Assembly: GCA_016194325.1 (NCBI GenBank)
Contig: JACQBS010000051.1
Span: forward strand, 7,855 to 71,854
DNA from: Nitrospinota bacterium
GTDB taxonomy: Bacteria; Nitrospinota; Nitrospinia; UBA9942
DNA length: 64,000 nt
Direction: 5' to 3'
Shown: in pieces, positions 16,640 to 60,873 of the stretch
Numbering within the stretch: the stretch's first letter is position 1
How the letters are laid out: every line of letters begins with the position of its first letter
Notes under the pieces: model-generated
Told to the model about the DNA's origin: nothing
Databases searched by the model: none
What the model saw: only the letters and a program-made list of their open reading frames with translations
Program-made: the position numbers and the translations under genes

Positions 16640-16761
16640 AGCAATGAGCAATGAGTGCTAAGCGATGAGTAAAAACTTATTGCTAATCACACATTATGAA
16701 ATTATGATTCGCAATTTATTATTTACATTGCTCATTGCTCATTGCTTATCACTCATTGCTT
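16640..16761 (+). repeat. Octamer-unit hairpin (GCAATGAG/CTCATTGC) with the gene start codon in its loop
   Basis: The left arm agcaatgagcaatgagtgctaagcgatgagt pairs with the 3' part of the right arm (ctcattgcttatcactcattgct) in about 21/23 positions. The loop contains gaaattATGATTCGCAATTT (ATG 16704). The right arm encodes LLIAHCLSLIAYA. Confidence 0.8.
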
Positions 16762-17531
16762 ATGCAAGTGAGATGGTTCTTATACCGGAGGGTAAGTTTA
16801 TAATGGGAAGTCGTGGAGACGGCGGAGATGAAGGTGTCTTAGGGGTGGATGTTGGGGTTGACCAGATTCCGCAAAGGGAGGTCTTCTTGAAGGCTTTTTA
16901 TATGGACAAATATGAGGTTACTGTCCAAGAGTATAAGGAGTTTGCAAAGGCAACAGGTCATCCCCTTCCCGGTCTTTTGACAGGTGAAGACAACCCCCTA
17001 ACCCCCTTTATTAAGGGGGAATTTAATGTGAAGGAGTGGGCAGTTAAATATCCTCCCATAGAGGATGATTTTCCAATCAATGATGTAACTTATATGGATG
17101 CGGAGGCTTATTGTTCATGGGCAGGTAAAAGGCTGCCTACTGAAGAGGAATGGGAGAAGGCTGCGAGGGGGAAAGATGGGAGGTTATACCCATGGGGAAA
17201 TGATAAAACAATTGGAAAGGCGAATACAATAGAGTGGTCAAAGGAAAAGGTGGCAGCGGTTGCTGTCGGGAGTTTTCCGACAGATATAAGCCCTTATGGA
17301 GTTTACGATATGGCTGGAAATATCATGGAATGGACATCTTCATGGTATGAGGCATATCCGGGGAGCAAACTAAAACGAGCACAATTTGGAAAAAAGTATA
17401 AGGTGATGAAAGGCGGGGCATGGATGGGACCAATGACACCCTTTGCACGGGGAGCACATCGGTATGCAGCAGGTGTTACAGAGAGAAACCATCATCCCCA
17501 TTTTGGATTTAGATGTGCAAAGGATATATAA
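16704..17531 (+). CDS. Secreted FGE-sulfatase-fold (SUMF1/formylglycine-generating-enzyme family) protein, catalytic Cys pair absent
   Basis: MVLIPEGKFIMGS...YMDKYEVTVQEYKEF...VTYMDAEAYCSWAGKRLPTEEEWEKAARG.DGRLYPWGN...YGVYDMAGNIMEWT...GFRCAKD. No GGS(Y/F)LCH.SYC motif. The ORF opens at ATG 16665 within the repeat arm. ATG 16704 (MIRNLL...) is preferred by analogy with 17660 and 19169. Confidence 0.8.
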   Translation: MIRNLLFTLLIAHCLSLIAYASEMVLIPEGKFIMGSRGDGGDEGVLGVDVGVDQIPQREVFLKAFYMDKYEVTVQEYKEFAKATGHPLPGLLTGEDNPLTPFIKGEFNVKEWAVKYPPIEDDFPINDVTYMDAEAYCSWAGKRLPTEEEWEKAARGKDGRLYPWGNDKTIGKANTIEWSKEKVAAVAVGSFPTDISPYGVYDMAGNIMEWTSSWYEAYPGSKLKRAQFGKKYKVMKGGAWMGPMTPFARGAHRYAAGVTERNHHPHFGFRCAKDI

Positions 17532-17536
17532 AATTA

Positions 17537-17643
17537 GCCACGGAGACACGGAGGCACAGAGTTTTTAAAAGCGGTTTACACGGTTTGAACAGTTTAAACG
17601 GTTTAATCTGGTTTATATCTCTGTGTCTCTGTGACTCTGTGGC
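17537..17643 (+). repeat. Tandem-unit hairpin element, CACAGAG/CTCTGTG family with CGGTTTAAA-repeat loop (copy 2)
   Basis: Left arm gccacggagacacggaggcacagag; right arm tctctgtgtctctgtgactctgtggc, about 21/25 complementary. The loop aaaagcggtttacacggtttgaacagtttaaacggtttaatctggtt is homologous to the loop of 1715..1816. Confidence 0.85.
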
Positions 17644-17659
17644 AAGAAAGGGTGAAATT

Positions 17660-18697
17660 ATGATTCGTAAATTATTACTTAAAACAGTGTCAGTGAATAG
17701 TGTCAGTGACAGGAAAAAAATACTAACATTGATACTTACACTTACACTTACACTGACACTGTCACTTGCATCAGCAAGTGATATGCTCCTCATCCCTGCC
17801 GGAGAATTTATTATGGGGAGCGGGGCTGTTCAGGGAACAGACCCTTACACTGACACTCACACTTTTAAAGAGGGGATTGACTATGGAGTGGATGAGATTC
17901 CACAGAGGAAGGTTTTTGTCAAAGACTTTTATATTGACAGATTTGAAGTAACAAATGCCGAATACAAAGAATATCTTAAATATCTCATTAAGAACAGGGT
18001 GAGGCTTCCATTTTATGAGGATATAGGTATCCCTATCCCGGAGGATTGGAGATATCTAAGAAGCAGTGTCAAAGAGTCAGAGAGTCAAAGTGTCAAAGTA
18101 AAAAATACTGATACTGACACTGACACTTATACTTTTAAAGAAGGCATGGAATATCATCCTGTAAGTGATGTGGATTGGTATATGGCAAATAGTTATTGTC
18201 AATGGAAAGGCAAGAGATTACCTACAGAAAATGAGTGGGAGAAGGCTGCAAGGGGGACAGACGGCAGGCTCTATCCATGGGGGAATGAAGAGAATAAAGG
18301 ATATGCGAATACCAGAAAAAGCAGTGTCAAAGAGTCAGAGAGTCAAAGTGTCAAAGTAAAAAATACTGACACTGACACTAACACTGACACTGGCACTGTG
18401 GCGGCAGGCTTTTTTAAAAAAGATGTTAGTCCTTATGGTGTCCATGATATGGGGGGGAATGTGGCTGAATGGACATCATCTTTATATCGTCCATATCCGG
18501 GAAGTCCTGTGGCAGAAAGAGAGGCATTTAAGAGAGAGTTCTATGTTGTCAGGGGCGGGTCCTATTTAATTAATGCCCATGAATCGGCAAGGGCATCGGC
18601 GAGATACTATATGCTCCCGACCCGTATGCCAAGGGCAGCAGATGCCTGGCATGGTGACGGGATGGTGGGGTTCAGATGTGCAAAAGATAAAGAATAG
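17660..18697 (+). CDS. Secreted FGE-sulfatase-fold protein carrying two in-frame hairpin-repeat insertions
   Basis: The leader is MIRKLLLKTVSVNSVSDRKKILTLILTLTLTLTLSLASA. FGE-family motifs: LLIPAGEFIMGS, RFEVTNAEYKEY, WYMANSYCQWKGKRLPTENEWEKAARGTDGRLYPWGN, YGVHDMGGNVAEWT, GFRCAKD. GGSYLINAHESARASARYY replaces the FGE motif GGS.LCH.SYC..YR, so both Cys are lost. The listed ORF start at 17513 is read-through of element 17537..17643. Confidence 0.8.
   Translation: MIRKLLLKTVSVNSVSDRKKILTLILTLTLTLTLSLASASDMLLIPAGEFIMGSGAVQGTDPYTDTHTFKEGIDYGVDEIPQRKVFVKDFYIDRFEVTNAEYKEYLKYLIKNRVRLPFYEDIGIPIPEDWRYLRSSVKESESQSVKVKNTDTDTDTYTFKEGMEYHPVSDVDWYMANSYCQWKGKRLPTENEWEKAARGTDGRLYPWGNEENKGYANTRKSSVKESESQSVKVKNTDTDTNTDTGTVAAGFFKKDVSPYGVHDMGGNVAEWTSSLYRPYPGSPVAEREAFKREFYVVRGGSYLINAHESARASARYYMLPTRMPRAADAWHGDGMVGFRCAKDKE
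18065..18136 (+). repeat. In-frame hairpin insertion 1 in FGE-like CDS (AGTCAAAG arm / A-loop / CTGACAC arm)
   Basis: Sequence: agtgtcaaagagtcagagagtcaaagtgtcaaag-taaaaaat-actgatactgacactgacacttatactttt. It is 72 nt (24 codons) and encodes SVKESESQSVKVKNTDTDTDTYTF. Confidence 0.85.
18323..18398 (+). repeat. In-frame hairpin insertion 2 in FGE-like CDS
   Basis: The left arm and loop (agcagtgtcaaagagtcagagagtcaaagtgtcaaagtaaaaaatactga) are identical to insertion 1, which lies 258 nt upstream. The right arm is actgacactgacactaacactgacactggcactg. It encodes SVKESESQSVKVKNTDTDTNTDTGT. Confidence 0.85.
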
Positions 18698-19168: not shown

Positions 19169-22100
19169 ATGATTCGCAAATTGCTGCAAATATTACTATT
19201 TACACTGACACTGACACTGTCACTTTCCCCTGTGTTTGCTACGATCTCTACTGTTGACTCACAGGGTGGTGCGTATAGCTCTATTAAGCTCCAATCTGAT
19301 GGTAAGCCTGCGGTTGCCTACTTTGACCATAAAACCGGGGAGTTGAGGTATTCTTACTGGACAGCGAATGGGACAGTGAATCAATGGATTCGCACTGTCG
19401 TGGAAGAAAAAGGTGTAACAGGGTATGTCTCCCTATGGTTAGGCAGCGGAAATAAGCCCTACATAAGCTACTATCACAACATAAGTAAGAATAACAGCAC
19501 AGGCTCAGATATAAACGGTAAATACGGCAACCACATGGTAGGTGCACTCAAATATGCCTATTGTTCTACTACAACCTGTCTTACACCTGAGGACTGGACA
19601 AAGGTAACTGTGGCAGAGATTGGTCAATCACAAAACGGGCATACTGGAGGGTTTACATCCCTTGCCTTTGATTCGTCAGGAAATCCGAGGATAGCCTATT
19701 ATGACTTTTCTCATAAGATAGATGCCAATGACATAAAGAAAGGTGCATTAAAACTTGCCTATTGTGACAGTAATTGCAGCAGTAGTAGTAGCTGGTCAAT
19801 AAGCACAGTTGATACTGATGGCGGCAGGTCTGCCTCTATGGTTATAAATTCCAGCAATAAGGTGATGTTCAGCTATGATGCTGATGAAGTGCAGACAGTA
19901 AGGTATGCGGAAGGCTCACCCCCATTTTCATCATGGACTAAAGCGGATATAGATACAATTGTAAACACGAGTAATTTATTCAGGGATACATCAATAGCAA
20001 TTCATCCAACCACGGGGAAGCCGAGGCTTATATATCAATATCAAGGGCAGGCTGACTATGGAACAGGCGGTACTTGTAGTTCTTGTACCCGGTCTGTCAG
20101 CGATCGATATTATGGTTACAATACTCCCGGGATTATAACCCGTCGTGATGCATACTATGCCTATTGTGATGCTGCTGATTGCACAGTTTCTACAAACTGG
20201 ACAAAAAATGTTGTTTTAGAGAGTAATGAGAGATATTTGAGGGGATATACATCTTCAATTAAGGTTGGGAGTGACGGTCCAAAGATTGCGTATCATTACT
20301 GGGGGCATAGGGCAAATAGTGCTTATTCTATTGGGCTTACTCAGAACCTCCAATATGTTAACTGTACTACCGCGAATTGTTCAAGTAAGAACATCTCCAC
20401 TATTGATTCAACAGAGAACACAGGGCTTTATTCTTCCATTGCACTTGATTCCTCTAACAATCCTTTGATTTCTTATTACGATTATGATTCAAACCAATTA
20501 AAGCTTTACCATCCGACAAACTCTTATACTGATGCTGGTATTACAGCAGATACCCGTGCAAGCGATACATCCAATGGAGGCACAGGACTACAGAGTGGGG
20601 ATAGCTTCAAAATCCTCTTTTCAGGTGCTACTAATGGAGCAGCATGCTCTATTACTACTGCTAATATAGACAGTATCCTCAAACTCTCAAATGGTCATTC
20701 CTGGGTATGCTCGGGGAGCAGTATAACAGCTACATGGAGTAACACCTACAATACAAACGATACACTAACAATCACGGTTACTTCCGGCACAGGTGGCTGT
20801 GTGCCTACAGTGGAGGTTGGGGATAGGGTATCTCTGAATGGAACCTGTATATTAGATGGGAGTGGTAATCCTATTATTTTACAGACAGAGATAAGGGGTA
20901 GCACCGGAGTCAAGGTTCCAACCGGCGCTGTAGCATATTGGAAGATGGATGAAGGTGCGAAGCTTACTGCCTGGGACAGTGTAGGTCCACATAATGCATC
21001 TTTGAACAATGGTGTTACATGGACAACAGGTCTTAGTGGCTCTGGACTCTCTCTTGATGGCAGTGATGACTATCTGATTGTCCCCGGAAACCCTGTTGAT
21101 TTAGATATTAAAGGGGGGAAGATTACCATTGAGGCATGGCTCAAGCCGAATAATTTATTTAGCACAAATTATACTGTCCTCAGTAAAGAGAATAGTTATG
21201 CAATGACATCAAATGGTCAGTGTGCCATAGAAACATCCGATACAGGAACAACATGGGCATGGTATGGGGGAGCGAGTATGAGCAGATTGCAAAGAAATTA
21301 TTCAGGAAATAAGGATATATGGAGACAGGTTGTCTGCACATACGATGGAACAACACAGAAGGTTTATATAGATGGCATCTTTGATGGAAGTCTATCACGG
21401 ACAGGAACTGTAAGCGCCTCAAATTATCCTTTTGTAATGGGGAGGAGGGAACTGTCAACATGGCCTACGAACAGAGGATATGATAGTAATGGTTGTCCTG
21501 GTACCGTCAGCGGTTGCAGTGGTGAAAACTACTGGGGGACAAATTATTACAATGGGAAAATGGATGAGGTTGTTATATATAATACTGCACTTTCACAGAC
21601 TGAAATTTTAAATCGTTTCAGCTCATTACCTGCCCAGTTTGAGAGGGCAGATGCAAATGATACATCTATGAGTGGCTATGGGCTTCAGGCAGGGGATACT
21701 ATAGCAATAAGGTTCACGAATGAGACAAATGCCCCTACAATAAATGCAGGAAATATAAATACAGTCCTCTCAGTTACTGGAAAGACATGGAAGGATGGGA
21801 GTGGAAATATAGGTAGTGCAGTATGGAGTCAAACAAGATTCACTAATGATACACTATTAATCACATTAAGCACAGCAACCAGTGCCCCCACAGTTGCAAC
21901 AGGAGATATAATAACCCTATCGGGAGGAATAATAAAAGAGAAAACCGGGATCAACTCTATTACAGGCTCCACTAAAATCAGGGGAAGTTATGATTTGAAT
22001 GGTGCTGTTGCATACTGGAATCTTGACGAGAGCAGCGGGGATCCATCAGACAGTGTCGGGCAGTATAATACCGGGACACTTGCTTGTGTTGGTACGGGTT

Positions 22101-25100
22101 GCACTAATCCAACCTATGCCGCAGGTAAATATGGCAATGCTATGACATTTGCCAGCGCCTCATCTCAATATGTTTCTGTCTCAAACTACCCTGATTTAAA
22201 CCCATCTACCTCTATCACAGTAGAGGCATGGGTTAGCCTTAGTGATACAGGGGCTGAGCATGTTATATTATCAAAGAATAATCAGTATCTTCTTAGATAT
22301 TCTACAAACAACAAATTCTCCTTTTATTTGTATGATGGGACCGATTGGGAACCAGGTGTTCATAGCGCTACATTACCAAGCTCCAATACATGGTATCATG
22401 TTGTAGGAACATGGGATGGGACAAATCAAAAAATTTATGTAAATGGAGTATTGGAAAATACTGTTACCCATAACTTCACGTCTGCCTCTACTACAAATGC
22501 AGTAGAAATTGGAAAATGGTCTGCATATATGAACGGTCTTATTGACGAAGTTGTGATTTACAATCGTGCCATTACGGATGATGAGGTTCGGAAGCGGAAT
22601 AGTTCAAGGCTTAAGACTGCTGTGGCTAAAGATGCCTCAGGCTTATCAGGTATTCAGGCGGGGGATAAGGTTATAATTACATTTGATGCACCCACAGGCG
22701 CCACTTCAATAACAAGCGCCAATATAGGTACCGCCCTATCCCTCTCCAGCAGTCATTCATGGAAGGATGGTGCTGGAAATATAGGAAGTGCTGTATGGAG
22801 CACAACAACCTATACAAATGATACACTTACAATAACTTTAAGTACAGGGACAAGTGTTCCAACTGTTGCTGTCGGGGATACGATTACACTCGGTACCACA
22901 ATAAAAGATACATTTAATAGAACAATAACAGGCTCGCTAACTATAGGTGGAACATTCGGGACTGCACTTCCATCCGGGAGTGTAGCATACTATAACTTTG
23001 ATGAGCAGAGTGGAGGGACAGCACACGATTCAATAGGAAACAATCATGGAACGCTAAATAATTCCTTCTGGAAGACTGAGCGGCTCTTCAAGGGACTCTA
23101 CTTTGATGGCAGCAGATATGTTGATGTCCCGGATAGTTCTGACTTTGACCTCTCATCCTATACAATAGATGCGTGGGTGAAGGTGCCTGATGGATTAACT
23201 ACTACTACCCAATACAGACAAATTATCTCACAGGATGATGGTGCAAACTACTGGAGGATGAGGCTGAATAATAACACACTTGAGCTCTGTGACAGCAGGC
23301 TCACAATGAGCGACTCAACTACATGCTTTAAAACAGCCACAACTATTAATGATGGAGAATGGCATCATGTAGCAGTTGTCCGGGATGGGACAAATAATCA
23401 GGTTTTACTATATATAGATGGTGTCCCCCTCGCAACAGATAATACTACAGGTGGAGGGACCGCCCACAATATCTCGGCTGCGGTTCAGCTCGGCAGGAAA
23501 TATGATAGCACAGGATATTTTTATGGAATGATAGATGAGGTTGTCCTCTATAACAGGGCACTAACGGCTACGGATATACAGAGTAGATACCGTGCACCAT
23601 TAAAATCAGCCTTCACAAGTGATATATACTTTAATTCAGGAAAACAGGCAGGTGATAAGGTTATTATCAGGTTCCATGGGAAGACGAATGGCTCTACTCC
23701 TGCGATTGATGCTACCAATATCAATACAATCCTTCAACTCTCAAGCGGTTCATGGAAAGATGGTGCAAATCAGATTGGCAGTGCGGTATGGTCAACATAT
23801 AAATGGACAAATGATACATTAACCATAACATTGAGTGCAGGAACAAGCGCCCCTACAATAGCATCAGGTGCTACCATAACAGTGAATGGGACATATATAA
23901 AAGACACATTTAATAATGCCATATCCGATTCAATAACATTAAGTAAAGACTTTGACTTTAACCTGCCAGAGGGTGCAGTGGCGTACTATAAGATGGAGAA
24001 TAATAATGACAGCTTTGGCACGAATAATATAACAACTAACACTGGCACAGGAGGTGCATGTAAGTTTGGCAATTGCTACACCTATGGTGCAAATCAATAT
24101 GCCTCTATTACTAACTCCTACACTCTAAACCCTGAGAGGATTACAGTAGAGGCATGGGTTAATCCCGGCACCTCAACTGCAACATGGGCTACCGGAAATG
24201 CATACTTCTTCTATGGAGCCAATTCTGTTCAGTTCTATGGTGCAGCCGGTGCAGCCACAGTTCGTTTCAGTGTATATGTAAATGGTGCATGGACGAATAT
24301 GAATTATACGCCCTCAAGTATCTCCGGATGGCATCACTATGTTGGGACATATGATGGTGCAAACTTAAGACTCTATATGGATGGTGTGGCAGTGGGGACC
24401 CCTGTTACATTATCGGGAGTTATAAATCAATTTGATACTGGCACTTTCTACCTTACTCAACCTGCAACCGCAAATAATCCATCTGTTTCTATAGATGATG
24501 TCGCTGTCTATAACCGTGCATTGACAGCAGAAGAGGTTCTTGGCCGTTATGGAGATTATACAGTTACTGCCATTGCAAGGGATACATCTGGAGGAGGACC
24601 TGGTATTCAGGCAGGGGATACAGTTACATTCAAGTTCTCAGGACCAACAAATGGTGCTGTTATTGATGCTGCCAATATAGATAATGCCCTTGCCATTTAT
24701 GAGCTAAACACATGGAAGGATGGGAGTGGGAATATAGGGAGTGCAGTATGGAGTTCTCCTACCTATTCAAACGATACACTGACAATTACATTAAGCACAG
24801 GGACGAGTGTCCCCACTGTTGCACCACTGAATAATATTACAATAGGCTCGCCAATAGGCTCAAAATACAGGGCATTCACAAAGAGTGCAAAAATCGGAGG
24901 ATTATTTGGGGATAATCTTCCTGCTTCGGGTAACAAGGTAGTCTACTATAACTTTAATGAGCAGAATGGAACTACTGCCTATGATTCAATTGGAAGCAAT
25001 CATGGGACGCTAAATAATTCCTTCTGGAGGACGGAGCAGACATTCAAAGGACTTTATTTTGATGGCAGCAGATATGTTGATATTCCTGATAGTGATGATT

Positions 25101-28100
25101 TTAACCTCTCATCTTATACAATAGATGCATGGGTGAAGGTGCCAGATGGCTTGACTACAGGCATTAGACAAATTATCTCACAGGATAATGGAACGAGCTA
25201 CTGGAGGATGAGGCTAAATAATAACACACTTGAGCTTTGTGACAGCAGGCTCACAAGTCCGTGTAATAATACAGCCACAACTATTAATGATGGAGAATGG
25301 CATCATATAGCAGTTGTTCGTGATGATGCATTGGATAAGGTTTTATTTTATATAGATGGTGTGAATATCTGGACAGTCTCATCACTTACAGAAACAGGGA
25401 CACATGCTATAAATGCTAATATTCAAATAGGCAGGAAGTATAATGGCACAGAATATTTTTATGGAATGATAGATGAGGTTGTCCTCTATAACAGGGTGCT
25501 GACAGATGCAGAAATACAGACCAGATACCGTGCCCCTGTAAAATCTGCCTTCACAAGTGATTCATATTTTAGCTCAGGAATAGTCTCAGGGAAAGATAAG
25601 GTTGTTATAAGATTCCATGGAAAGACGAATGTGGCGACGGCAATAGATAGCACTAATATCAATACAATTCTTCCAATAACAGGAAAGACGACAGGATGGG
25701 GAACTGTCCAGGGTGCAGTATGGTCAACATATCCTACTGGTGGAACTATGACAAATAATACACTGACCATAACATTAGGCACAGGGGCAACAATAGCAAA
25801 GGGGGATACAATAACAACAAACGGCACATATATCAAAGATTTATATCTCAATTCCATATCCGATTTAATAACATTGAGCGGAGATTTTAACCTTAATCTG
25901 CCTGAAGGTGCAGGAGCATACTGGAGATTTGATGAGACTACCGGGACTACTGCATCCGACAGTTTCAATGGTAATAGCGGGACACTTATAAATTCCACAT
26001 GGACTACTGGAAAAATCAATAATGCCCTCCAGTTTGGTGGACCCTTGACTTATACTAAACTTTCAGCAGGCACAGCCACTGCCATCAGCACCAGTGCTAA
26101 TTATAGACTGAATGGACCACAAGATGGTCAGGGGAGTACCGTTGGAACTTGCACCTCCACTACCAGTACCTGTTATACCTGGCGTGCTAATACCGCTGTT
26201 AACAATGAGTGGTGGCAGGTAAACTTCGGAAGTTCTCAAACAATTTCAAGGGTAAAAGTGTATGCATATACAACAGGCACAACTGCAACTTATAAAGTGC
26301 AGACATCACCAGATGGCTCAACATGGACAGATAGGGGGAGCACAACAACGAACGGATGGACTACTTTTGATTTCTCTCCGATAACATCGCAATATGTCCG
26401 GGTGTATGAGACCGCTAATGCCGGCGATGGCTTTCTCTATATATCAGAAGTAGAGGTTTATAATGATAATAGTGGTAATAATTATGCTCAAGTCAATAAC
26501 TCCTACTCCCTGAACCCTGAAAGGCTCACAGTAGAGGCGTGGGCAAAGAGTGGTGCAGCTTCATGGAATGTTACTGATGCACTTGTAACTAAGGCTTCTG
26601 CTTACAAACTCTCTACAACTTCCGGTTCCAAAAATATGTCCTTCTACATATATGCAGGCGGGGCATGGCGGGGTCCTGCTACATTTACTGCTGATGGGAG
26701 CTTTGACATCACACAGTGGCACCATTATGCAGGGACCTATGATGGGGCAAATTTAAAAATTTATGTTGATGGTGTGCTTAAGAATACTACTGCCTATACA
26801 GGAGTGATAAATATCACTGATACAACGGGTCTTTACATAGGCAGTGATAATGGAACAACAAACTATTTGAATGCCAATATAGATGAGGTTGCAATTTATA
26901 ACCGTGCATTGACATTAGAAGAGGTGATTGGTCGTTACGGAGATTATAGCCCAATTACAGCCTTTGCAAATGACCCTGCACCTGATGTTTCGGGTATTCA
27001 GGCTGGGGATACAGTTGAAATAAGGTTCCCTGGACCAACAAATGGCGCTTTCATTGATGCAAGTAATATAGATAATTTCCTTACCCTATCAAATACCCAT
27101 TCATGGAAGGATGGGAGTCTTGCAATAGGTAGTGCAGTATGGAGCACAAGGGTATATGAGAATGATACATTGACAATTACATTAAGTGCAACTACAAGTG
27201 CACCTACTGTTGCACCACAGGATACAATCTCAATAGGCGGTGCCGGAGAGATAAATGCGAAATACAGGGCAGCCGCATGGAACCCGAAAATCAGCGGGAC
27301 ATTTGGAGAGCCGTTACCCGGGACACCCGCAGCATTTTGGAAGATGGATGAGAATACCGGCAATATTGCCTTTGACACTGTAGGGACGAATGATGGAACC
27401 CTTTCTGGCACAACTATCCCGGCATGGGGGACAGGCTTCTTCAACTATGGGCTGGACTTTAACAGCAGCACTGCCTATATGAATGTCGGTAGTATAATAT
27501 TAATTGGTGATTGGTCTATAGAGGGATGGTTCAAGTATCCTCTACCTATTGTTACAGGTACATATAATTCTCTTACAGGAGACCGCCGTGTTGTAGTCCA
27601 GAGAACAACAATGAAACTTGGGACATATAATGGTGCATTTGTTGATCTGGATACTCCTTATTTGATGAGTGGACTCGTATCAGGCTGGCATCATATTGCA
27701 GCAGTAGGTGATTCTACTGTTGGTGGATGTTCGCCCTTGCCCGACGGATGTACAAAGTTTTATATTGATAGTGTCCTTGTAGGAACAGCAAATTATAAGA
27801 CCACTGCTGCATTGACGACTATAGGTAATACAACTGCAGGTAATGAGCAGTTCGGTCTTATAGATGAGCTCGCTGTTTACTCAAGCGCCCTCACAGCAGA
27901 TGAGGTAGCCTCCCGCTATCTTGTCTTCTTTAAGGAAATCTATGCAAAAGATACGAGTAATGGTGGTGCTAATGTCCAGAATGGGGACCAGGTCATTGTC
28001 AGATTTGATGGACCTACAGGTGCAACATTTATAGATGGTAATAATATAGCTAATGCCCTGCAGTTATCTGCCGGCAGTTGGGGGACTATAACCTCTGCTA

Positions 28101-36439: not shown

Positions 36440-39400
36440 ATGAACAGAAAAGAAATAGTGTTAGTGAATAGTGTCAGTGTCAGAAAGAAAATGCTTACAC
36501 TTACACTTACACTTACACTTACACTAATGCTTTCAGTTTATGCCTTTCCATGGAGTGAGCCGGTTATTATAGACTCAGGACCTTTCAATGCCTACAGGAC
36601 TGATATTGCATTTGACTCCAGGGGTAATGCCATAAGTGTATTTGAACAGAAGAGTGGTGATTTCTATAGAATATTTGCTAACAGATATGTCAATGGCAAG
36701 GGTTGGCAGGGGACGGTTACAATAGATGCTAATAGCGGTGATGCCTATAGGGCTCAGGTGGCATTAGATAAAGAAGGGAATGCTATGGCAGTATTCAAAC
36801 AAGCAAACAGGGTCTTTGCCAACCGATATATTTATAATGAGGGTTGGCAGGGGACTGTCCCTATTGATAATGGCACAGGTAATGTCGATGGGCAGGATAT
36901 AGTCTTTGACAGTGAGGGGAATGCTGCTGCAGTCTTTGAGGAGTATAATGGTAAGGAATTTGGAATATATGTAAATCTCTATTCTTCTACTGACACTAAT
37001 ACTAACACTGACACTTCTAAAAGTAGCTGGTCTGGGGCTTTCCGGATAGATACTGGTCATGGTAATGCCTTTTTCCCATATCCACTATTTGATGACAAAG
37101 GTAATCTTTATGTAATTTATTATAAGGAAGAGTCCAGTGGGCTGGAGGTTTATGTCAGCCGGTTACAGAAGCCAGAAGTTAGAAGCCAGAAGTTAGAAGC
37201 CAGAAGTCAGAAGATAACTTATGGAAACATAGTACACAAGAAAGAGAAATGGGTTGAAAAGAAAAGTGAAATAGGGAGAGGAATTAAGTCTGTATATAAT
37301 CCCATGTTTTTAAGTGAGCTCAAAAAGAGGATATATTCGGGGAACTACTCCTACTCCCGCTGGGAGACCCCTTCAAAAATAGATTCAAGGTTCAGAGATG
37401 CATACAGACCAACCCTTCTTGCTAATGGGAATGGAGAGGTAACTGCACTATTTGTAAAATGGGATGGCGAATATTTAAGTGGCTATATGGTTAGCCACAG
37501 AAATGGTAAATGGGGCAAAATAGAGGAGATTGATGCAGGGAAGGGTGATGTGGAGCATATAAGAGGTGCAGTAAATTTCAAAGGTGAAATGGCAGTCGTA
37601 TTTACACAGTGGGTGGATGATAAACAAGGGGCAAGGGGCAAGGGGCAAGGGGCAAGGGGTAATGAAAATTTAAGGATACATGCAAGGATATATTCCCCCT
37701 TAACAAAGGGGGATAGGGGGTTGTCTGGCTGGGGGGAGGCTAAAATCATAGACGGAGGTAAAAAAGATGCCTACAATCCAAGTATTATATTTACCAATAG
37801 TGGTGAAATTATTGCTGTCTGGTGTCAGTGGGAGAAAGCGAATGTTAAGTCATATACAAATATTTACAGAAATGGAATAGGGTGGGGAAATGCAGAACGG
37901 CTTGAGAATAAAGAGGGTGAGACCTGTGGTGTAAGGATTGCATCAGGATCGGATGGTAAGGTCATTGCTATATTTGAGCAGGATGGTGTTAATTCAGAAG
38001 CCAGAAGCCAGAAGATAGAAGTAGTAGCCGTTTCTGACGGCGATAAAGCAAGAAGCCTGCCCCTGCATGATGTAAGCAGGGGAATAAACAGGATATTTGC
38101 AGTGGAATTTAAAAACACTGACACTGTCACTAACACGGACACTTATACCGTAAGAAAGCTTACCAGTGGAGATAGGGAGGATTATTATGCGGAGTTCAGT
38201 CCTGATGGAAAAATGATTGTCTTTGTTTCAAAACATGGAAAATATTCTAATCTCTATATTATGGATGCGGATGGAAAGAACATGAGACAATTAACTTCCG
38301 GTGATGTAACTGATACAGCCCCTGTTTTTACACCTGATGGAGGAAAGATTATCTTTGCCTCAAACAGGATTGCTGAAGGATGGGATATCTGGTCTGTCCG
38401 CCCCGATGGCTCTGAGCTTACCCGTATTACAAAATGGAGCAGAAACGAATACTCTCCACATCCCACATCTGATGGTAAAGGTGTGCTCTATGTCTCTACT
38501 GCAGGTGGTGACCATGCCATCTGGAGTATGGATATAAATGGAGATAATCCGAGACGATTAACCTCAGGAGGAACAGGTGATTGGTTCCCTGCAATGAATC
38601 CGAATGGTAGAGAAATTGTCTTTGTAAGCACGAGGCTGGGATATGGCGATATATGGACGATAGATCCGGTGGAAAAGAAATATCATAGATTGACCTATTC
38701 TGACCTGCCAGAGTTTTCACCGGCATGGAGCCCTGATGGCTCAAAGATTGCCTATGTGACTAACAAAGGTGGGGAATTTGATATCTGGATTATGGATAGA
38801 GACGGAAAAAATAAGAAGAGGCTGACAAAAGGGATATCAGATAGAAATTGGGGAAATAGGTTCTCGGCGATTAAGATAATGGAGACCGCCGGGTATTATC
38901 ATCTCTCATGGCATCCTGACGGGACAAAAATCCTTTTTACAGAATGGGGGGATAATGAAAAAGAGAGCTGCATTTCAATACTTGATTTTGATAAGGCTAT
39001 TATAGATAGATTGGAAGCAGATGGAACATCTATCCCAGAGTATACCTTGATTGGAGAGGGGGAACTGACAAAAGGCGAATGGGAGGATTTTGCTCCCTCA
39101 TTTAGTCCTGATGGTATATCCCTCACCTTTTCATCCAACAGGAGCGGTAACTGGAATATATGGAGTATGGAATTTAATGGAGAAAACTTAAGGCAGCTTA
39201 CGGATGAGAAGGCTGATGCTCTTGCCCCTGTCTTCAGTCCCGACGGCAAAGAAATAGCCTTTTTGAGAAGCCAGAAGCCAGAAGTCAGAAGCCAGAAGGA
39301 TGAAACAAATTTTGAAAATCGTCAATCTTCAATCGTCAATCTTCAATATGATTTGTGGCTAATGAAAAGTGATGGGAGTGGTGCGAGGCAGGTTACAAAA

Positions 39401-39985
39401 GATATTCAGGTTATATCTTATCCTGCATGGAATCCGAATGGTAAAGAAATAGCCTTTGTCGCTCAAGGGAAGGATGTTCCTGAAATATGGACATACAACT
39501 TTGAAAACTCTAAAGTGCGAAGACTTATCACGGCTTACAACTCACAACTCAAGACTCAAGATTCATTAAGCTATCCCTTCATAAAGTTCTTGTATCGTAT
39601 AGGGTATAATCCTGCTGGTGATAAAATTACCTTTGAATCTAATCGTTCAGGAAATGTAGAGATATGGACAATGAGGAGTGATGGGACTAATCTTGCCCGT
39701 ATTACAAATGGGGATAGTCCGCACTGGAATCCTATCTGGAGTCCTGATGGGAAGATGATAGCCTATACAACCGATAAGTTAGGGGAAAAAGCAGGACATC
39801 ATAACTGGCGTAATTACAATATTTGGGTAGCTGATCCAGAGACACATGAAGAGATGCTCATTACAGGTGAAGAGCAGATAGACTGGAATCCTGTATGGAG
39901 CCCCGATGGTAAAAAAATCGTCTATGTTACAAACCGTTCAGGTGATTTTAAACATTTCAACCTGTGGGTGCTGTATTTGAAGTGA
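36440..39985 (+). CDS. Secreted two-part beta-propeller protein: novel N-terminal repeat region + TolB-like PD40 repeats; carries at least 10 repeat-derived in-frame segments
   Basis: The leader is MNRKEIVLVNSVSVRKKMLTLTLTLTLTLMLSVYA. The N-terminal half has ~45-aa repeats (W.G...ID.G...AY....A.D..GNA.AVF.Q......IFANRY). The C-terminal half has PD40 blades (FSPDGK.I.F.S...G..NIW.M..DG.N.RQLT). The conserved tail is NRSGDFKHFNLWVLYLK. Confidence 0.8.
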   Translation: MNRKEIVLVNSVSVRKKMLTLTLTLTLTLMLSVYAFPWSEPVIIDSGPFNAYRTDIAFDSRGNAISVFEQKSGDFYRIFANRYVNGKGWQGTVTIDANSGDAYRAQVALDKEGNAMAVFKQANRVFANRYIYNEGWQGTVPIDNGTGNVDGQDIVFDSEGNAAAVFEEYNGKEFGIYVNLYSSTDTNTNTDTSKSSWSGAFRIDTGHGNAFFPYPLFDDKGNLYVIYYKEESSGLEVYVSRLQKPEVRSQKLEARSQKITYGNIVHKKEKWVEKKSEIGRGIKSVYNPMFLSELKKRIYSGNYSYSRWETPSKIDSRFRDAYRPTLLANGNGEVTALFVKWDGEYLSGYMVSHRNGKWGKIEEIDAGKGDVEHIRGAVNFKGEMAVVFTQWVDDKQGARGKGQGARGNENLRIHARIYSPLTKGDRGLSGWGEAKIIDGGKKDAYNPSIIFTNSGEIIAVWCQWEKANVKSYTNIYRNGIGWGNAERLENKEGETCGVRIASGSDGKVIAIFEQDGVNSEARSQKIEVVAVSDGDKARSLPLHDVSRGINRIFAVEFKNTDTVTNTDTYTVRKLTSGDREDYYAEFSPDGKMIVFVSKHGKYSNLYIMDADGKNMRQLTSGDVTDTAPVFTPDGGKIIFASNRIAEGWDIWSVRPDGSELTRITKWSRNEYSPHPTSDGKGVLYVSTAGGDHAIWSMDINGDNPRRLTSGGTGDWFPAMNPNGREIVFVSTRLGYGDIWTIDPVEKKYHRLTYSDLPEFSPAWSPDGSKIAYVTNKGGEFDIWIMDRDGKNKKRLTKGISDRNWGNRFSAIKIMETAGYYHLSWHPDGTKILFTEWGDNEKESCISILDFDKAIIDRLEADGTSIPEYTLIGEGELTKGEWEDFAPSFSPDGISLTFSSNRSGNWNIWSMEFNGENLRQLTDEKADALAPVFSPDGKEIAFLRSQKPEVRSQKDETNFENRQSSIVNLQYDLWLMKSDGSGARQVTKDIQVISYPAWNPNGKEIAFVAQGKDVPEIWTYNFENSKVRRLITAYNSQLKTQDSLSYPFIKFLYRIGYNPAGDKITFESNRSGNVEIWTMRSDGTNLARITNGDSPHWNPIWSPDGKMIAYTTDKLGEKAGHHNWRNYNIWVADPETHEEMLITGEEQIDWNPVWSPDGKKIVYVTNRSGDFKHFNLWVLYLK
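37166..37214 (+). repeat. In-frame (YAGAAGN)7 heptamer tandem repeat
   Basis: cagaagc cagaagt tagaagc cagaagt tagaagc cagaagt cagaaga encodes QKPEVRSQKLEARSQK. Related blocks lie at 37995..38022, 39265..39299, 46664..46691 and 60542..60569. Confidence 0.9.
37625..37659 (+). repeat. In-frame perfect (CAAGGGG)5 heptamer tandem repeat
   Basis: caagggg x5 (35 nt, not a multiple of 3) encodes QGARGKGQGARG within the TolB-like 1 CDS. Confidence 0.95.
39265..39344 (+). repeat. In-frame composite repeat (SAGAAGY)5 + (AATCKTC)4 at the variable loop of TolB-like paralogue 1
   Basis: gagaagc cagaagc cagaagt cagaagc cagaagg ... aatcgtc aatcttc aatcgtc aatcttc encodes RSQKPEVRSQKDETNFENRQSSIVNLQ. Confidence 0.9.
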
Positions 39986-39990
39986 TAATT

Positions 39991-40073
39991 AGTGCAGAGT
40001 ATCAAAGTATCAAAGAGTCAAAGTATCATAGATTAAAGACTTTGACACTCTGACACTTTGACACTTTGACTCT
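39991..40073 (+). repeat. Intergenic octamer-unit hairpin (AGTCAAAG/CTTTGACA) between TolB-like genes 1 and 2
   Basis: Left arm agtgcagagtatcaaagtatcaaagagtcaaagtatca; 9-nt loop; right arm gactttgacactctgacactttgacactttgactct. It starts 6 nt after stop 39985 and ends 16 nt before ATG 40089. No T-tract. Confidence 0.85.
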
Positions 40074-40088
40074 ATAAGGGGGTTTACT

Positions 40089-42122
40089 ATGAATATAAAA
40101 AAACTGACACTCACACTCACACTGACACTCACACTCACACTGACACTCACACTGGCATATGCGCAGGAGCTTCCCTATACTGTCAGGAATATTACCGATG
40201 GAGAGAGAATAGATTTTCATCCGGAATTCAGCCCTGATGGGAATGAGCTCGTATTTGCCTCTAAAACAGAGATAAGCGAAGATGATAAAAAGAAAGAGTT
40301 TTGGGGTACCAGTCCCTATTATGTGAACTTATGGCTCATGAACTCAGACGGAAGGAACAAACGGCAGTTGACCACTGATAAAGCAATAGATTGTTATCCA
40401 TCGTTTACCACTGATGGAGAAAAGGTTCTTTTTGTCTCCAACAGGGGTGGGCAGTGGGATATCTGGTCTATAAAAAAAGATGGCTCAGGACTTACCCGTC
40501 TTACAAATAATACTGATAAAGATTACTCGCCAAAGGTAACACCGGATGGTAAACATATTCTATTCTTCAGCACACCAACATCAAGTGAAGTTGGTTATAT
40601 TACAGAAAGTGTATGGATTATGGATATGGATGGAAAGAATGCAAAGAGATTGACCTCCGGAGGCAAGGGGGATTGGTATCCCTCTATGAACCCTGATGGT
40701 AAGGAAATTATATTTGCAAGCATGCGGCTTATAGGTGGCAGTCTCTGGACAATAGATAGGGAAGGAAAGAATTACAGGAGATTGACCTATGGAAAGGTGC
40801 TGGAGTTTTTTCCCAACTGGAGTCCTGATGGGGAAAAAATCGCCTATGTTTCAAGAAGGGAGCATGCCTCCTTTGATACTGTAGGCGATACCGAGAAAGA
40901 CCCGCTTGAAATCTGGATTATGGACAGAGACGGAAATAATAAAAGGCAATTAACAAAAAATATATCAGGGGGTATATGGGATTCAAGATTCAACTTAAGA
41001 AAACCCCTTGATTTTATCAGTTATTATCATTTGTCATGGCACCCTGACGGCACAAAGATTGCTCTTACTACATGGGATAGAGGACAAAAGGGTAGCTATA
41101 TCAGTGTAATTGAGTTCGGCAGAGATACTTTAAATAAATTGCCTGCCTTAAAAAACGATACACTTCCTCAATATACTTTGATTGGAGAAAGGGAGCTTAC
41201 TGCCGGTGAGTGGGAGGATTTCGGTCCCTCCTTCAGTCCTGATGGTAATACGATAGCCTTTTCATCAAACAGGTCGGGTAATTGGGATATCTGGAGTATA
41301 GGGGCTGATGGTGAGGGAGTGAAGCAACTTACAAAAAATCCATCCACAGAAATTGCCCCTGTCTTCAGTCCTGATGGTAAAGAGATAGCCTACCTCAAAG
41401 AGGCAAATCCAAAATCCGAAATCAGAAATCCGAAATATAATATGTGGATAATGAAAAGCAACGGGGAGGAGGCACGAGAGGTTACAGGAGCGATTCCTGT
41501 TCTATCTTATCCTGCATGGCATCCTGCTGGTAATGAGATTGCCTTTATATCAAAAGGGGATGAGGGAATTGGAATATGGGTTTACAATGTCATTCAACAA
41601 AAGAGCAAAAAGGTAGCTACTATATGGAATAGCGAAAGAGAACAAGAGGCAAGAATACGTGCAGGGGAGGCTTTAGCCTCCCAAAGAGGCAAAAGGTATT
41701 ATCCCTTTAATGAGCTATTCCTCTACCGAATAGATTATAATAATAAAGGAGATAAAATTACCTTTGAGTCAAATCTTTCTGGTAATGTAGAAATATGGGT
41801 AATGAACAGTGATGGAAGGGATATGAGTAAGGTTACAACAGGGAGTAGTCCGCACTGGAATCCTGTATGGAGTCCTGATGGAAATAGAATAGCTTATGCA
41901 ACAGAGAAACTTGCTTCAAACTTAGGGCCTCCTTTTTGGCCAGATAATAATTATAATATCTGGCTGGCTGATATGAGTACAGGAAAAGAAGAGGCACTTA
42001 CAGCAGAGGAGCAAACCGATTGGAATCCTGCATGGAGCCCGGACGGAAAAAGAATCGCATATGTAACCAACAGGTCAGGTGATTTTAAACATTTCAGTAT
42101 ATGGCTGTTGTATTTGAAATAG
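40089..42122 (+). CDS. Secreted TolB-like PD40 beta-propeller repeat protein (about 12 blades)
   Basis: The signal peptide MNIKKLTLTLTLTLTLTLTLTLAYA is encoded by (CTGACACTCACACTCACA)3. It has about 12 blades with FSPDG/WSPDG...I.F.SNRSG.WDIW. The tail is NRSGDFKHFSIWLLYLK. Confidence 0.85.
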   Translation: MNIKKLTLTLTLTLTLTLTLTLAYAQELPYTVRNITDGERIDFHPEFSPDGNELVFASKTEISEDDKKKEFWGTSPYYVNLWLMNSDGRNKRQLTTDKAIDCYPSFTTDGEKVLFVSNRGGQWDIWSIKKDGSGLTRLTNNTDKDYSPKVTPDGKHILFFSTPTSSEVGYITESVWIMDMDGKNAKRLTSGGKGDWYPSMNPDGKEIIFASMRLIGGSLWTIDREGKNYRRLTYGKVLEFFPNWSPDGEKIAYVSRREHASFDTVGDTEKDPLEIWIMDRDGNNKRQLTKNISGGIWDSRFNLRKPLDFISYYHLSWHPDGTKIALTTWDRGQKGSYISVIEFGRDTLNKLPALKNDTLPQYTLIGERELTAGEWEDFGPSFSPDGNTIAFSSNRSGNWDIWSIGADGEGVKQLTKNPSTEIAPVFSPDGKEIAYLKEANPKSEIRNPKYNMWIMKSNGEEAREVTGAIPVLSYPAWHPAGNEIAFISKGDEGIGIWVYNVIQQKSKKVATIWNSEREQEARIRAGEALASQRGKRYYPFNELFLYRIDYNNKGDKITFESNLSGNVEIWVMNSDGRDMSKVTTGSSPHWNPVWSPDGNRIAYATEKLASNLGPPFWPDNNYNIWLADMSTGKEEALTAEEQTDWNPAWSPDGKRIAYVTNRSGDFKHFSIWLLYLK

Positions 42123-42135
42123 GGGAGGATTTACC

Positions 42136-44403: not shown

Positions 44404-44460
44404 TGAAAGTGTAAGTGAAAGTGTAAGTGAAAAGAGTTAACTTACACTTACACTTGCACT
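44402..44460 (+). repeat. Intergenic hexamer/heptamer hairpin (AGTGTAAGTGAAAG / CTTACACTTACA) between TolB-like genes 3 and 4
   Basis: Sequence: agtgaaagtgtaagtgaaagtgtaagtgaaaag-agttaa-cttacacttacacttgcact. It overlaps stop codon 44401..44403 and ends 13 nt before ATG 44474. Confidence 0.85.
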
Positions 44461-44473
44461 ATAAGGAGGAGCC

Positions 44474-54191: not shown

Positions 54192-54725
54192 ATGAGAAAA
54201 ATTATAATTATAGTAAATATAATAATAACCTTTTTAAGTTGTAATTGTTTTGCAGAGGTAAACTCTCAGAAAATGGAAGAACCTATAAGGGAGTTAATAA
54301 TCAGGTTAAATAATGAATATATTTCTCTTGAGGAGTCATTAAGAAAATTTGAGAAGAACATTTGGGATTTCCCTACCACAATTTTAAATCTATCCATCAT
54401 AAAACGTAGCAGTGATATAAATATAACTTCTATAGAAATTTATGATAATAGTAAATTGTTAGAGGGGCATATTTATACACCTATTGAAAACGAGGCGATT
54501 AATTCGGGTGGCCGCCATCAGCTTTACAATAAGGAGATAGCAGGAGGGAACCGCAATCTCGGAATAATATATTTCTGGACAGAAAAAGATAAACCTCAAC
54601 AAAAAGGGGAGTTATCTATCCCTCTGAATATATCGCGAGGTAAGGATGTTTATATAGAACTGTCTCTTGAAAAGAGGAAAGATAAAGTAGAGTTGCGGGT
54701 ATCTAAGTTTGAATTTGATGGATGA
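54192..54725 (+). CDS. Hypothetical small secreted protein or lipoprotein
   Basis: The hydrophobic N-terminus IIIIVNIIITFLSCNC is lipobox-like. No recognisable domain and no clear RBS. Confidence 0.5.
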   Translation: MRKIIIIVNIIITFLSCNCFAEVNSQKMEEPIRELIIRLNNEYISLEESLRKFEKNIWDFPTTILNLSIIKRSSDINITSIEIYDNSKLLEGHIYTPIENEAINSGGRHQLYNKEIAGGNRNLGIIYFWTEKDKPQQKGELSIPLNISRGKDVYIELSLEKRKDKVELRVSKFEFDG

Positions 54726-54787
54726 CTAATAGCTAAAGTGTGATTTTAAGAAATATCTTATAACTATTTGATATGTCAATGTAATAC

Positions 54788-56686: not shown

Positions 56687-56698
56687 TCCCAAAAAAAA

Positions 56699-56762
56699 GT
56701 GTAAGTGTAAGTGTAAGTTAAAGGAATCGTTTTTTTCTGACACTGACACTGACACTGACACT
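56699..56762 (+). repeat. Intergenic hexamer hairpin (GTGTAA)n / (CTGACA)n
   Basis: Sequence: agtgtaagtgtaagtgtaagt-taaaggaatcgttttttt-ctgacactgacactgacactgacact. The arms are complementary in 5 of 6 positions per unit. Confidence 0.9.
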
Positions 56763-56770
56763 ATATAGAA

Positions 56771-60868: not shown

Positions 60869-60873
60869 ATTAT

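Follow-up and report, generated by a model that had tools for sequence, protein, structure and literature searches.

A 64,000-nt stretch of one contig (the window) from an uncultured groundwater Nitrospinota bacterium contains a single reading frame of 16.5 kb and, further along the same strand, a set of ExbB, ExbD and TonB genes, which raises the question of what so large a protein does and whether the motor genes have any part in its function. The frame (19169..35665, + strand) is uninterrupted, as an initial sequence-only reading of this DNA had described, and encodes a protein of 5,498 aa (584 kDa) with a pI of 4.9 and a composition rich in Thr, Gly, Ser and Asn. No other frame in the metagenome-assembled genome (3.1 Mb, 175 contigs) comes close in length: the runner-up encodes 1,765 aa. 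In uncultured groundwater microbes the genes for giant adhesin-like proteins, which are common there, rank with the largest and least understood, and this protein is a further example. The case adds a clean domain map with two clear domain-in-domain nestings, as well as a 115-aa spacer module that lies outside Pfam and recurs on lectin giants and extracellular multihaem cytochromes from several phyla. The features of the gene are as follows.

19169..19240, + strand: putative Sec-type signal peptide, aa 1-24, MIRKLLQILLFTLTLTLSLSPVFA (read directly from the sequence)
19241..20545, + strand: N-terminal region, residues 25-459, with about seven blade-like repeats (phmmer self-scan and inspection by eye)
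20546..28906, + strand: eight module-LamG pairs, M1-L1 to M8-L8 (HMMs built from the protein's own repeats, Pfam Laminin_G_3, AF2 of M3+L3)
26078..26446, + strand: F5/8 type C (discoidin) domain inside LamG 6, aa 2304-2426 (Pfam PF00754, E 6.4e-13)
28907..31777, + strand: five tandem modules, M9-M13, without LamG, M11 being split (own-repeat HMMs)
29831..30766, + strand: two-domain insert (DUF2341, then ConA-like), aa 3555-3866, occupying a loop of module 11 (Pfam, HMM halves, AF2)
31778..35662, + strand: LamG 9, then M14-L10, M15-L11 and M16-L12 (own-repeat HMMs)
~34046-34378, + strand: insert of about 110 aa in L11, no family assigned

By eye, the N-terminus reads as a Sec signal, in agreement with the sequence-only reading; an ACACTG/ACTGAC micro-repeat codes for the hydrophobic core of this signal. 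Nowhere else is the protein strongly hydrophobic, a window at aa 3935 being borderline (1.65 against a threshold of 1.6), and the sequence shows neither a transmembrane segment nor a lipobox nor any known sorting signal at the C-terminus. A phmmer self-scan with one N-terminal repeat recovered copies near aa 34, 85, 157, 275, 358 and 417, and a seventh was spotted by eye near aa 221; most of these repeats carry a C-x3-4-C loop. The region is unique within the genome and has no match in Pfam or among PDB sequences. Its earlier description as propeller-like is borne out as far as the blade-like repeats go; the propeller fold itself is one that they may adopt. All 36 cysteines of the giant fall into 18 sequential close pairs, which suggests that the protein is extracytoplasmic and that the pairs may form disulphide loops.

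For the Pfam scan the protein was split into two halves, in which Laminin_G_3 (PF13385) scored 517 and 258 bits (cut-off 27.6; E 5.6e-157 and 4.2e-77, respectively). HMMs built from the giant's own repeats delimit 12 LamG domains, the number first proposed, together with 16 copies of a module of ~115–120 aa, in place of the roughly 20 copies of ~100 aa counted before. The two kinds of domain alternate, as had been claimed, through modules 1-8 and 13-16, but modules 9-13 stand in tandem without LamG. Scanned against Pfam, the 15 intact modules yielded nothing beyond isolated matches below threshold (Big_5, Big_9, CusF), so the 115-aa module is left without a family name, and a PDB sequence search with the module profile returned nothing significant. 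An AF2 model of M3+L3 (pLDDT 72.8) predicts a seven-strand β-sandwich for the module and a jelly roll for the LamG domain. Structures matching the LamG model are carbohydrate-binding LamG and lectin-like ConA-like domains: after normalisation, AbnA domain 4 (5hon_A, TM 0.72) ranks first, and lectin domains of trans-sialidases and the S. sanguinis PilC pilin's lectin module are among the further matches.

Copies of the module also occur elsewhere, on further large proteins, MtrC-like multihaem cytochromes among them, and in two organisms that have no outer membrane or Ton system, a Gram-positive bacterium and an archaeon. These occurrences were counted toward the reading of the giant as an adhesin. 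The module may represent an undescribed extracellular stalk domain common to lectin giants and MtrC-like cytochromes in bacterial phyla and archaea, a proposal that is better supported than the motor-island reading considered below. Roles given here to the module and to the N-terminal repeats are guesses, since neither has characterised relatives.

Pfam places the single discoidin domain, previously put at about 26090..26465, at 26078-26446 (F5_F8_type_C, 49.4 bits against a gathering score of 28.2), and the LamG HMM splits around it (positions 2-67 and 51-204), which shows it to be nested in LamG 6. The DUF2341 + ConA-like unit, first claimed at 29837-30735, is present and spans 29831-30766; it is nested in module 11, whose flanking halves correspond to HMM positions 2-46 and 47-117. 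Pfam confirms DUF2341 (PF10102) at aa 3595-3675 (29951-30193) with 100.5 bits against a cut-off of 23.4, and a search of the genome (108 bits) gives this as the only occurrence of the domain. An AF2 model of the unit (pLDDT 89.6, pTM 0.89) has a second domain that Foldseek pairs with the jelly rolls of GH16, the GH43 C-terminal domain and Emp47p (L-type-lectin). A PDB sequence search with the unit returned nothing significant and NCBIfam gave no match. The cluster representatives related to it number 12,742. Nesting adds three glycan-binding-type folds to the giant, namely the discoidin domain in LamG 6 and the DUF2341 and ConA-like domains in module 11.

We consider it most plausible, with a probability of about 0.6, that the giant is exported by Sec and acts as a multivalent adhesin or matrix protein that binds glycans, and that type II secretion is its most plausible route of export. 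The original suggestion of a giant surface lectin or adhesin is favoured by the LamG and DUF2341-unit models, which match carbohydrate-binding ConA-like and lectin folds, and by the Sec signal and paired cysteines. Glycan binding by the giant is predicted from fold class alone, and ConA-like folds bind proteins and lipids too. The protein would fold in the oxidising periplasm, with its 18 cysteine pairs closed as disulphide loops, and would then exit the cell by way of the type II secretion system whose genes stand at the start of the co-oriented contig. Outside the cell it might serve as an adhesin or as a matrix or sheath component binding polysaccharide on cells, biofilm or particles, with the 16 Ig-like β-sandwich modules acting as rigid spacers between LamG beads and the N-terminal repeats as a head or attachment piece.

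Giant ORFs of Omnitrophota that carry LamG and discoidin domains have been read as adhesins (PMC10066038), and Laminin_G_3 is the commonest domain in the huge proteins of archaea (PMC11573180). The giant resembles these in being a secreted protein of several thousand residues with Laminin_G_3 and F5/8-type-C domains and in its interpretation as an adhesin. Unlike them, it has a Sec leader, no transmembrane helices, an unnamed 115-aa spacer module, about seven N-terminal repeats, nested discoidin and DUF2341 domains, and a Nitrospinota host.

The following genes near the giant bear on its export and its conserved company.

2..1396, + strand: GspE-type secretion ATPase, last gene of a type II secretion cluster (Pfam T2SSE)
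16665..18697, + strand: two FGE-sulfatase-family genes upstream of the giant (Pfam; conserved neighbours)
36440..46636, + strand: four PD40 (TolB-like) propeller genes downstream of the giant (Pfam; conserved neighbours)

On the same contig and strand, the type II secretion cluster runs on for 7.8 kb upstream of the window (pseudopilins, GspK, GspL/PilMN, GspM and secretin), and downstream of it are encoded many extracytoplasmic-type families (multihaem cytochromes, NHL/PKD, PD40 and others). The giant has a Sec-type leader and shares its contig with the secretion cluster; at 584 kDa it would be an unusually large substrate for this system. Because the cluster lies 18 kb and about 10 genes from the giant, and contigs break in relatives, its support from synteny is no better than that of the ExbB block, and it is only mechanistically more plausible. 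Closer to the giant, the order FGE1-FGE2-small gene-giant recurs on contig C62 of G003, and the order giant-Uma2-PD40 on G003:C12 and G006:C95, G003 and G006 being a same-genus and a same-family genome. The FGE-FGE-giant-Uma2-PD40 set is thus kept in two other genomes of the family, separately from the motor block. The giant itself was rejected as an FGE substrate, as the CxPxR motif is missing from it.

An unlikely alternative to a freely exported lectin is that the giant is a pilus- or pseudopilus-associated adhesin, docked by its DUF2341 + ConA unit to the type II or type IV pilus-like fibre whose genes lie upstream. DUF2341 proteins are present in the type IV pilus loci of archaea, where they have been proposed as tip adhesins (PMC4858521), and two close relatives of the unit, P0178 and P0188, are proteins of pilin type that have an N_methyl leader; their identity is 50-53% across roughly half the unit and 38-40% over the full alignment. 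The match of the LamG model to the PilC lectin module and the type II secretion cluster on the contig point the same way. The giant shares with the archaeal proteins and the pilin-DUF2341 fusions both the DUF2341 + ConA-like unit and a secretion or pilus cluster on the contig. Its leader, however, is of Sec type and not a prepilin leader as in the fusions, the unit is a single nested insert, one domain among 30, and the secretion cluster is 18 kb away.

It is also improbable that the giant is a periplasmic or envelope structural scaffold, or a polysaccharide-degrading enzyme instead of a lectin. No outer-membrane targeting signal was recognised in the protein, which would suit a scaffold, and the ConA-like portion of the DUF2341 unit is similar to GH16 glycanases, at the level of fold only (TM 0.55-0.68). 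Against this, inspection of the unit by eye found the catalytic ExDxxE motif of GH16 to be absent, a GH16 enzyme being rejected, and Pfam detects no glycoside hydrolase or lyase family in the giant. Relatives of its module, moreover, belong to extracellular cytochromes or come from organisms that have no periplasm. A giant adhesin of the RTX or type I-secreted kind (LapA, SiiE) was rejected as well: such proteins lack an N-terminal signal peptide, bear a C-terminal secretion signal or RTX repeats and are encoded next to ABC/MFP/TolC genes, whereas the giant has a Sec leader, Pfam finds no RTX or Big repeats in it, and no ABC or MFP genes were found in the window.

The sequence-only reading had linked the giant to a MotA/TolQ/ExbB-ExbD-ExbD-TonB set 25 kb downstream in the same orientation, by which its export, anchoring or movement might be energised. 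The set is indeed there, 25.2 kb and 17 genes from the giant, within a larger block.

54192..63980, + strand: nine-gene block hyp177-TPR-TPR-TPR-hyp127-ExbB-ExbD-ExbD-TonB (Pfam, NCBIfam)
60874-61512, + strand: MotA_ExbB (ExbB/TolQ-like) gene (Pfam)
61493-61975, + strand: first ExbD gene (Pfam)
62045-62557, + strand: second ExbD gene (Pfam)
62550-63980, + strand: TonB-like gene with an AgmX/PglI-type C-terminus (Pfam/NCBIfam)

That this block exports, anchors, tensions or moves the giant lectin by proton-motive force is very unlikely. Possible analogues would be DUF2341-headed ExbB2-type motors beside giant two-partner-secreted proteins, and the Agl-Glt gliding motor of Myxococcus with its adhesin. 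Giant and block share strand and contig, amid genes for mostly extracytoplasmic-type proteins, and the TonB-like protein ends in an AgmX/PglI-type domain like that of the gliding protein GltG (72.7 bits, cut-off 40). The giant's contig encodes no TonB-dependent receptor, unlike contig C7, where an ExbB paralogue has one adjoining. The expectation that DUF2341 is typically fused to or next to ExbB is sound in that the fusion is real: the domain occurs as an N-terminal appendage on ExbB-type motor subunits themselves (PMC12505986), and a pdtA-pdtB-exbB2-exbD2-tonB4 cluster has been described in Pseudomonas aeruginosa (PMC7035377). It does not carry over to this locus, where ExbB is a plain 212-aa protein with MotA_ExbB only and no periplasmic DUF2341 + LamG head, and where the nearest relatives of the giant's unit showed no ExbB domain (0/150 and 0/120, 270 together).

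Gene neighbourhoods also argue against the link. Four relatives (G001, G002, G003 and G006) keep the self-contained nine-gene block together, but its upstream neighbours differ in G003 and G006: those in G003 are orthologues of genes on another contig of the present genome, C80, and the 45 kb upstream of the block in G006 contain nothing closely homologous to the giant's surroundings, with no giant, PD40 or WD40 gene and only one distant FGE-like paralogue (~27-33% identity). Among other genomes with module-bearing large proteins, none of seven has MotA_ExbB within 40 kb on the same contig. Conserved synteny between giant and ExbB/ExbD is therefore absent, a result that the sequence-only reading had itself named as refuting its proposal, and the link to an energising motor is unsupported. 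Promoter and terminator scans from the giant to the ExbB block gave scores near background.

The region does share a DUF2341 + ConA-like unit, a giant secreted protein and ExbB-ExbD-TonB genes with the DUF2341-carrying ExbB systems (PMC12505986). In those systems ExbB bears the head, and the motor genes lie directly beside a two-partner-secretion pair and a porin; at the present locus it is the giant that contains the domain, 25 kb separate the genes and the linkage is not conserved. Pfam finds no TPS (PF05860) domain in the giant, and the ORFs of the window include no TpsB partner (ShlB/POTRA protein) or porin; a two-partner-secretion exoprotein was accordingly rejected. Like Tol-Pal and Myxococcus Agl-Glt, the block comprises a TolQ-like channel, two TolR/ExbD proteins, a TonB/TolA-like protein whose C-terminus is of AgmX/PglI type, and a TPR protein bearing CpoB/YbgF repeats, but it has no Pal, no internal TolB gene and no Glt outer-membrane barrels, and its equivalog scores are all far below cut-offs. 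We regard the ExbB/ExbD/TonB genes as a separate Tol/Exb-like envelope block that is not needed to explain the giant. DUF2341 alone is no predictor of a Ton/Tol-type motor partner; such a partner may be read from the domain only when the motor subunit itself bears it, and the case is a caution for annotation based on gene neighbourhood.

Highly improbable, in our estimate, is the wider proposal that the 74-kb co-oriented island forms one surface apparatus, made up of the type II secretion system, multihaem cytochromes, the lectin giant, TolB-like propellers and, with its GltG-type C-terminus, the TPR-TolQR-TonB-like block, in which a Tol/Glt-like proton motor would tension or move the giant adhesin in a gliding-like or particle-handling process.

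It is very unlikely that the frame was fused in assembly from several genes with repeats, or that it belongs to a gene in decay, as a metagenome-assembled source in 175 contigs and the internal repeats might suggest, given 16.5 kb without a stop or frameshift, diverged repeats, and two ends and a DUF2341 junction that recur collinearly in independent assemblies. Repeats within the giant share only 35-66% protein identity, and at the DNA level they are at most 80-92% identical, over ≤300 nt; family D1, in the M9-M13 region, has spacings of 381 and 1344 nt, and Tandem Repeats Finder detected no tandem DNA repeat in the gene. As far as could be checked, repeat divergence, orthologous pieces and the junction give no sign of an artefact. 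Collinear orthologous pieces in independent assemblies match the N-terminus (77-79%, G003) and the C-terminal part at 31778..35662, on G003:C12 (65%, aa 3949-5493) and G006:C95 (68%). The DUF2341-to-module junction is conserved in a relative, the fragment P0152 (87% identity).

The reading frame at 19169..35665 (+) is single and unbroken over 5,498 aa, as the sequence-only reading had proposed, and is the longest of the 3.1-Mb, 175-contig assembly (runner-up, 1,765 aa). Its repeats share 35–66% protein identity between copies, and DNA identity reaches at most 80–92% over ≤300 nt. In a genome of the same genus ('Nitrospinae bacterium RIFCSPLOWO2_12_39_16'; G003), the N-terminus of this giant protein lies on one short contig (77–79% over ~900 aa), and aa 3949–5493 align at 65% to a second contig in a single collinear alignment; the C-terminus is present at 68% in G006, from another genus of the same family. 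In fragment P0152 (87% identity), the DUF2341 unit continues, as here, into the second half of a module, the unnamed beta-sandwich repeat of the protein. Because the repeats have diverged and the orthologous pieces and the P0152 junction agree, we conclude that the gene is most probably not an artefact.

A Pfam scan of two overlapping halves identified Laminin_G_3 (LamG; E 5.6e-157 and 4.2e-77), F5_F8_type_C (aa 2304–2426) and DUF2341 (aa 3595–3675), the last at 100.5 bits against a gathering score of 23.4, which bears out a domain first named from sequence alone. Its membership of the Laminin_G_3, discoidin and DUF2341 families is clear. Matches to Sialidase N-terminal, Toxin_R_bind_N, Pentaxin and Laminin_G_1/2 fall on the same stretches as LamG; based on Pfam clans, we take these to be related ConA-like families and not separate domains. 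The following map comes from scanning the protein against itself with phmmer and then with HMMs made from its own repeats.

Domain map of the giant protein (repeats from own-repeat HMMs)
aa 1–24: signal peptide
aa 25–459: N-terminal region
aa 460–3246: eight module–LamG pairs, alternating
aa 3247–4203: five modules in tandem
to aa 5498: LamG 9, then three module–LamG pairs

The 12 LamG domains equal the number counted previously, while 16 modules of 115–120 aa each replace the ~20 then estimated; the alternation described holds for the eight pairs and the last three, but not for the tandem modules. The N-terminus, earlier called propeller-like, does contain some seven blade-like repeats, most of which include a C-x3-4-C loop, and its predicted propeller fold is likely. 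Thr, Gly, Ser and Asn are abundant in the 584-kDa protein (pI 4.9), and its only hydrophobic segments are the leader and, at borderline strength, a window at aa 3935. Each of the 36 cysteines has a near neighbour in the sequence, giving 18 successive pairs, which we read as putative disulphide loops of an extracytoplasmic protein. An ACACTG/ACTGAC micro-repeat encodes the leader core FTLTLTLSLS and directly follows an ACTTTGAC octamer array that runs up to the start codon (together 19125–19222).

In an AF2 model of module 3 plus LamG 3 (pLDDT 72.8), a sandwich of seven strands leads into a jelly roll. Foldseek matches are to ConA-like lectin or carbohydrate-binding domains; AbnA domain 4 is the best normalised match (5hon_A, TM 0.72), and others include trans-sialidase lectin domains, lectin-like subdomains of clostridial neurotoxin complexes and, for the LamG model, the lectin module of the S. 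sanguinis pilin PilC; in these models the resemblance is one of fold class only. Neither Pfam nor PDB sequence searches gave a significant match to the module. The DUF2341 unit, modelled with 45 homologues (pLDDT 89.6, pTM 0.89), forms two beta-sandwiches, the second resembling GH16 glycanases, the GH43 xylosidase C-terminal domain and the Emp47p L-type lectin. The sequence of the unit lacks the ExDxxE motif of GH16.

Three domains are nested within others. Discoidin interrupts LamG 6; an insert of ~110 aa in LamG 11 (34046–34378), containing …GSATVLTTNNFSTAGVKAGLAVTGTGIDVDTYVKQVNSGTQITLSKNATASGTVTLTF…, has no family match; and the DUF2341 + ConA-like unit (aa 3555–3866, 29831–30766) cleanly interrupts module 11, whose halves cover HMM positions 2–46 and 47–117. 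Placed on the AF2 model of module 3 and LamG 3, the point of insertion lies in the loop that follows strand three. Module 11 nearly duplicates the intact module before it (DNA family D1, spacings 381 and 1344 nt).

The protein has a Sec leader and paired cysteines, is an all-beta string of domains with lectin-type folds, and shows no anchor signal; we read it, with a probability of about 0.6, as an exported adhesin or matrix protein that would bind glycans multivalently, its modules serving as spacers. The type II secretion cluster on the same contig, 18 kb away, is the best candidate route across the outer membrane, for which this would be an unusually large substrate. The protein belongs to the known kind of giant LamG/discoidin adhesin-like ORFs, the function of which is unexplored (PMC10066038, PMC11573180). 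New here are the unnamed module, which is patchily spread across phyla, two nested domains, and a conserved FGE–giant–PD40 neighbourhood.

Other module-bearing large proteins were found in Nitrospirota, Schekmanbacteria, Deltaproteobacteria, Planctomycetota, Phycisphaerae, an unclassified MAG, a Methanosarcinales archaeon and Brevibacillus ginsengisoli. One Candidatus Schekmanbacteria MAG (JACRJN010000015.1; G042:C32, L043 and L052) encodes a 13,481-aa frame with at least 8 modules and many LamG domains. Four modules each also occur in two multihaem cytochromes resembling MtrC/MtrF (L047 690–5141, L048 5632–10218), of which one comes from a Nitrospirota MAG and the other from an unclassified one; this fits an extracellular stalk role and suggests a putative stalk domain for extracellular redox proteins.

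Every called gene in the window is on the + strand; the window is 7855–71854 of a 74,240-bp contig.

Genes around the giant (window coordinates unless stated)
contig 1–7855, the 7.8 kb upstream of the window (L002): pseudopilins, GspK, PilM/PilN-type GspL, GspM, secretin
2–1396 (+): GspE
after GspE, to 16635 (+): four multihaem or c-type cytochromes (one of 1,747 aa with MtrC/MtrF-like domains) and an NHL/PKD protein
16665–18697 (+): two FGE-sulfatase-family genes, before a small gene
then, in order (+): small 23S_rRNA_IVP gene, giant, Uma2 gene
after Uma2 (+): four PD40 propellers, more FGE-like and rhodanese genes, a WD40 protein
after WD40 (+): hyp177, three TPR, hyp127, MotA_ExbB, two ExbD, a 476-aa TonB-like protein

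The type II secretion operon, cytochromes and NHL/PKD gene may form an extracellular electron-transfer island; the GspE–cytochrome junction is kept in G002 and G003. Within 35 kb (16665–18697, 46650–51355) there are five paralogues of the FGE-sulfatase family and two rhodanese genes, and the giant contains no CxPxR target motif of FGE. The slot 5′ of the giant holds 23S_rRNA_IVP here and PDDEXK_3 in G003. Uma2 (35873–36403) is 92–94% identical to its counterparts in G003 (C12; L036 5173–5700) and G006 (C95; L037 8360–8887), whereas the flanking giant and PD40 genes are only ~65% identical, which suggests a mobile or recently exchanged cassette.

The sequence-only reading suggested that the ExbB/ExbD/TonB set ~25 kb downstream could energise export, anchoring or movement of the giant, and named a lack of conserved synteny as evidence that would speak against this. 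A DUF2341 appendage does occur at the N-terminus of ExbB-type subunits (PMC12505986), and a Pseudomonas pdtA-pdtB-exbB2-exbD2-tonB4 cluster has been published, its TonB system uncharacterised (PMC7035377); DUF2341 is also known from large proteins encoded at archaeal type IV pilus loci (PMC4858521) and from Patescibacteria proteins of >4,000 aa (PMC11809585). The giant and the window's ExbB fail all tested defining features of the DUF2341–ExbB/two-partner-secretion module. This ExbB is 212 aa, without a head; ORF domain scans found no TPS domain in the giant and no TpsB or porin in the window. The only DUF2341 of the source genome is in the giant, and 1 of 40 relatives has a match, a weak one. 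The DUF2341 unit has 12,742 cluster-representative relatives (E up to 1e-3); the best 150 are 231–7,458 aa long (median 1,542), and none is matched by the window's ExbB. Ten shorter relatives have DUF2341 only in Pfam, one with Peptidase_S74 in addition. Among the 120 best matches of 172–546 aa, none has PF01618 and two (P0178, P0188) have a pilin N_methyl leader; their C-terminal half is a DUF2341 + ConA-like unit 50–53% identical to the giant's (best local alignment), and by sequence they are modular pilins with a lectin-like head.

Synteny between the giant and ExbB/ExbD is not conserved: FGE1–FGE2–small gene–giant and giant–Uma2–PD40 are conserved in G003 and G006 separately from the block hyp177 to TonB, whose upstream neighbours there differ, and in 0 of 7 other genomes with module-bearing large proteins is MotA_ExbB found within 40 kb on the giant's contig. 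The two share a contig only in Gram-positive Brevibacillus, at a distance of 41.5 kb. Motor coupling is very improbable. MotA_ExbB also matches 409–630-aa frames (G042:C76, G044:C54, G045:C387, G042:C167, G045:C190), which may be ExbB with periplasmic heads; these genomes also hold module-bearing giants, never on the same contig as such a frame.

The block (54192–63980) is an uncharacterised Tol/Glt-like envelope system of its own. In NCBIfam, the TonB-like C-terminus is an AgmX/PglI-type (GltG-type) domain (72.7 bits, cut-off 40), the 929-aa TPR protein has CpoB/YbgF repeats, and ExbB matches TolQ best, far under cut-off. Six TonB-dependent receptors are encoded in the genome, none on the giant's contig, and one adjoins a different ExbB paralogue (contig C7). 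The block is kept as a unit in G001, G002, G003 and G006. In G006 it ends a 54-kb contig; the other 45 kb carries nothing closely homologous to the giant's neighbourhood, just a single distant FGE-like paralogue. In G003 (C102), genes upstream of the block are 93–98% orthologues of genes on contig C80 of the source genome, and the match stops exactly where hyp177 would follow. The WD40–hyp177 junction is common only to G002, which is nearly identical in this region. The upstream neighbourhood of the block has changed within one genus (54192–63980; G003:C102; G000:C80).
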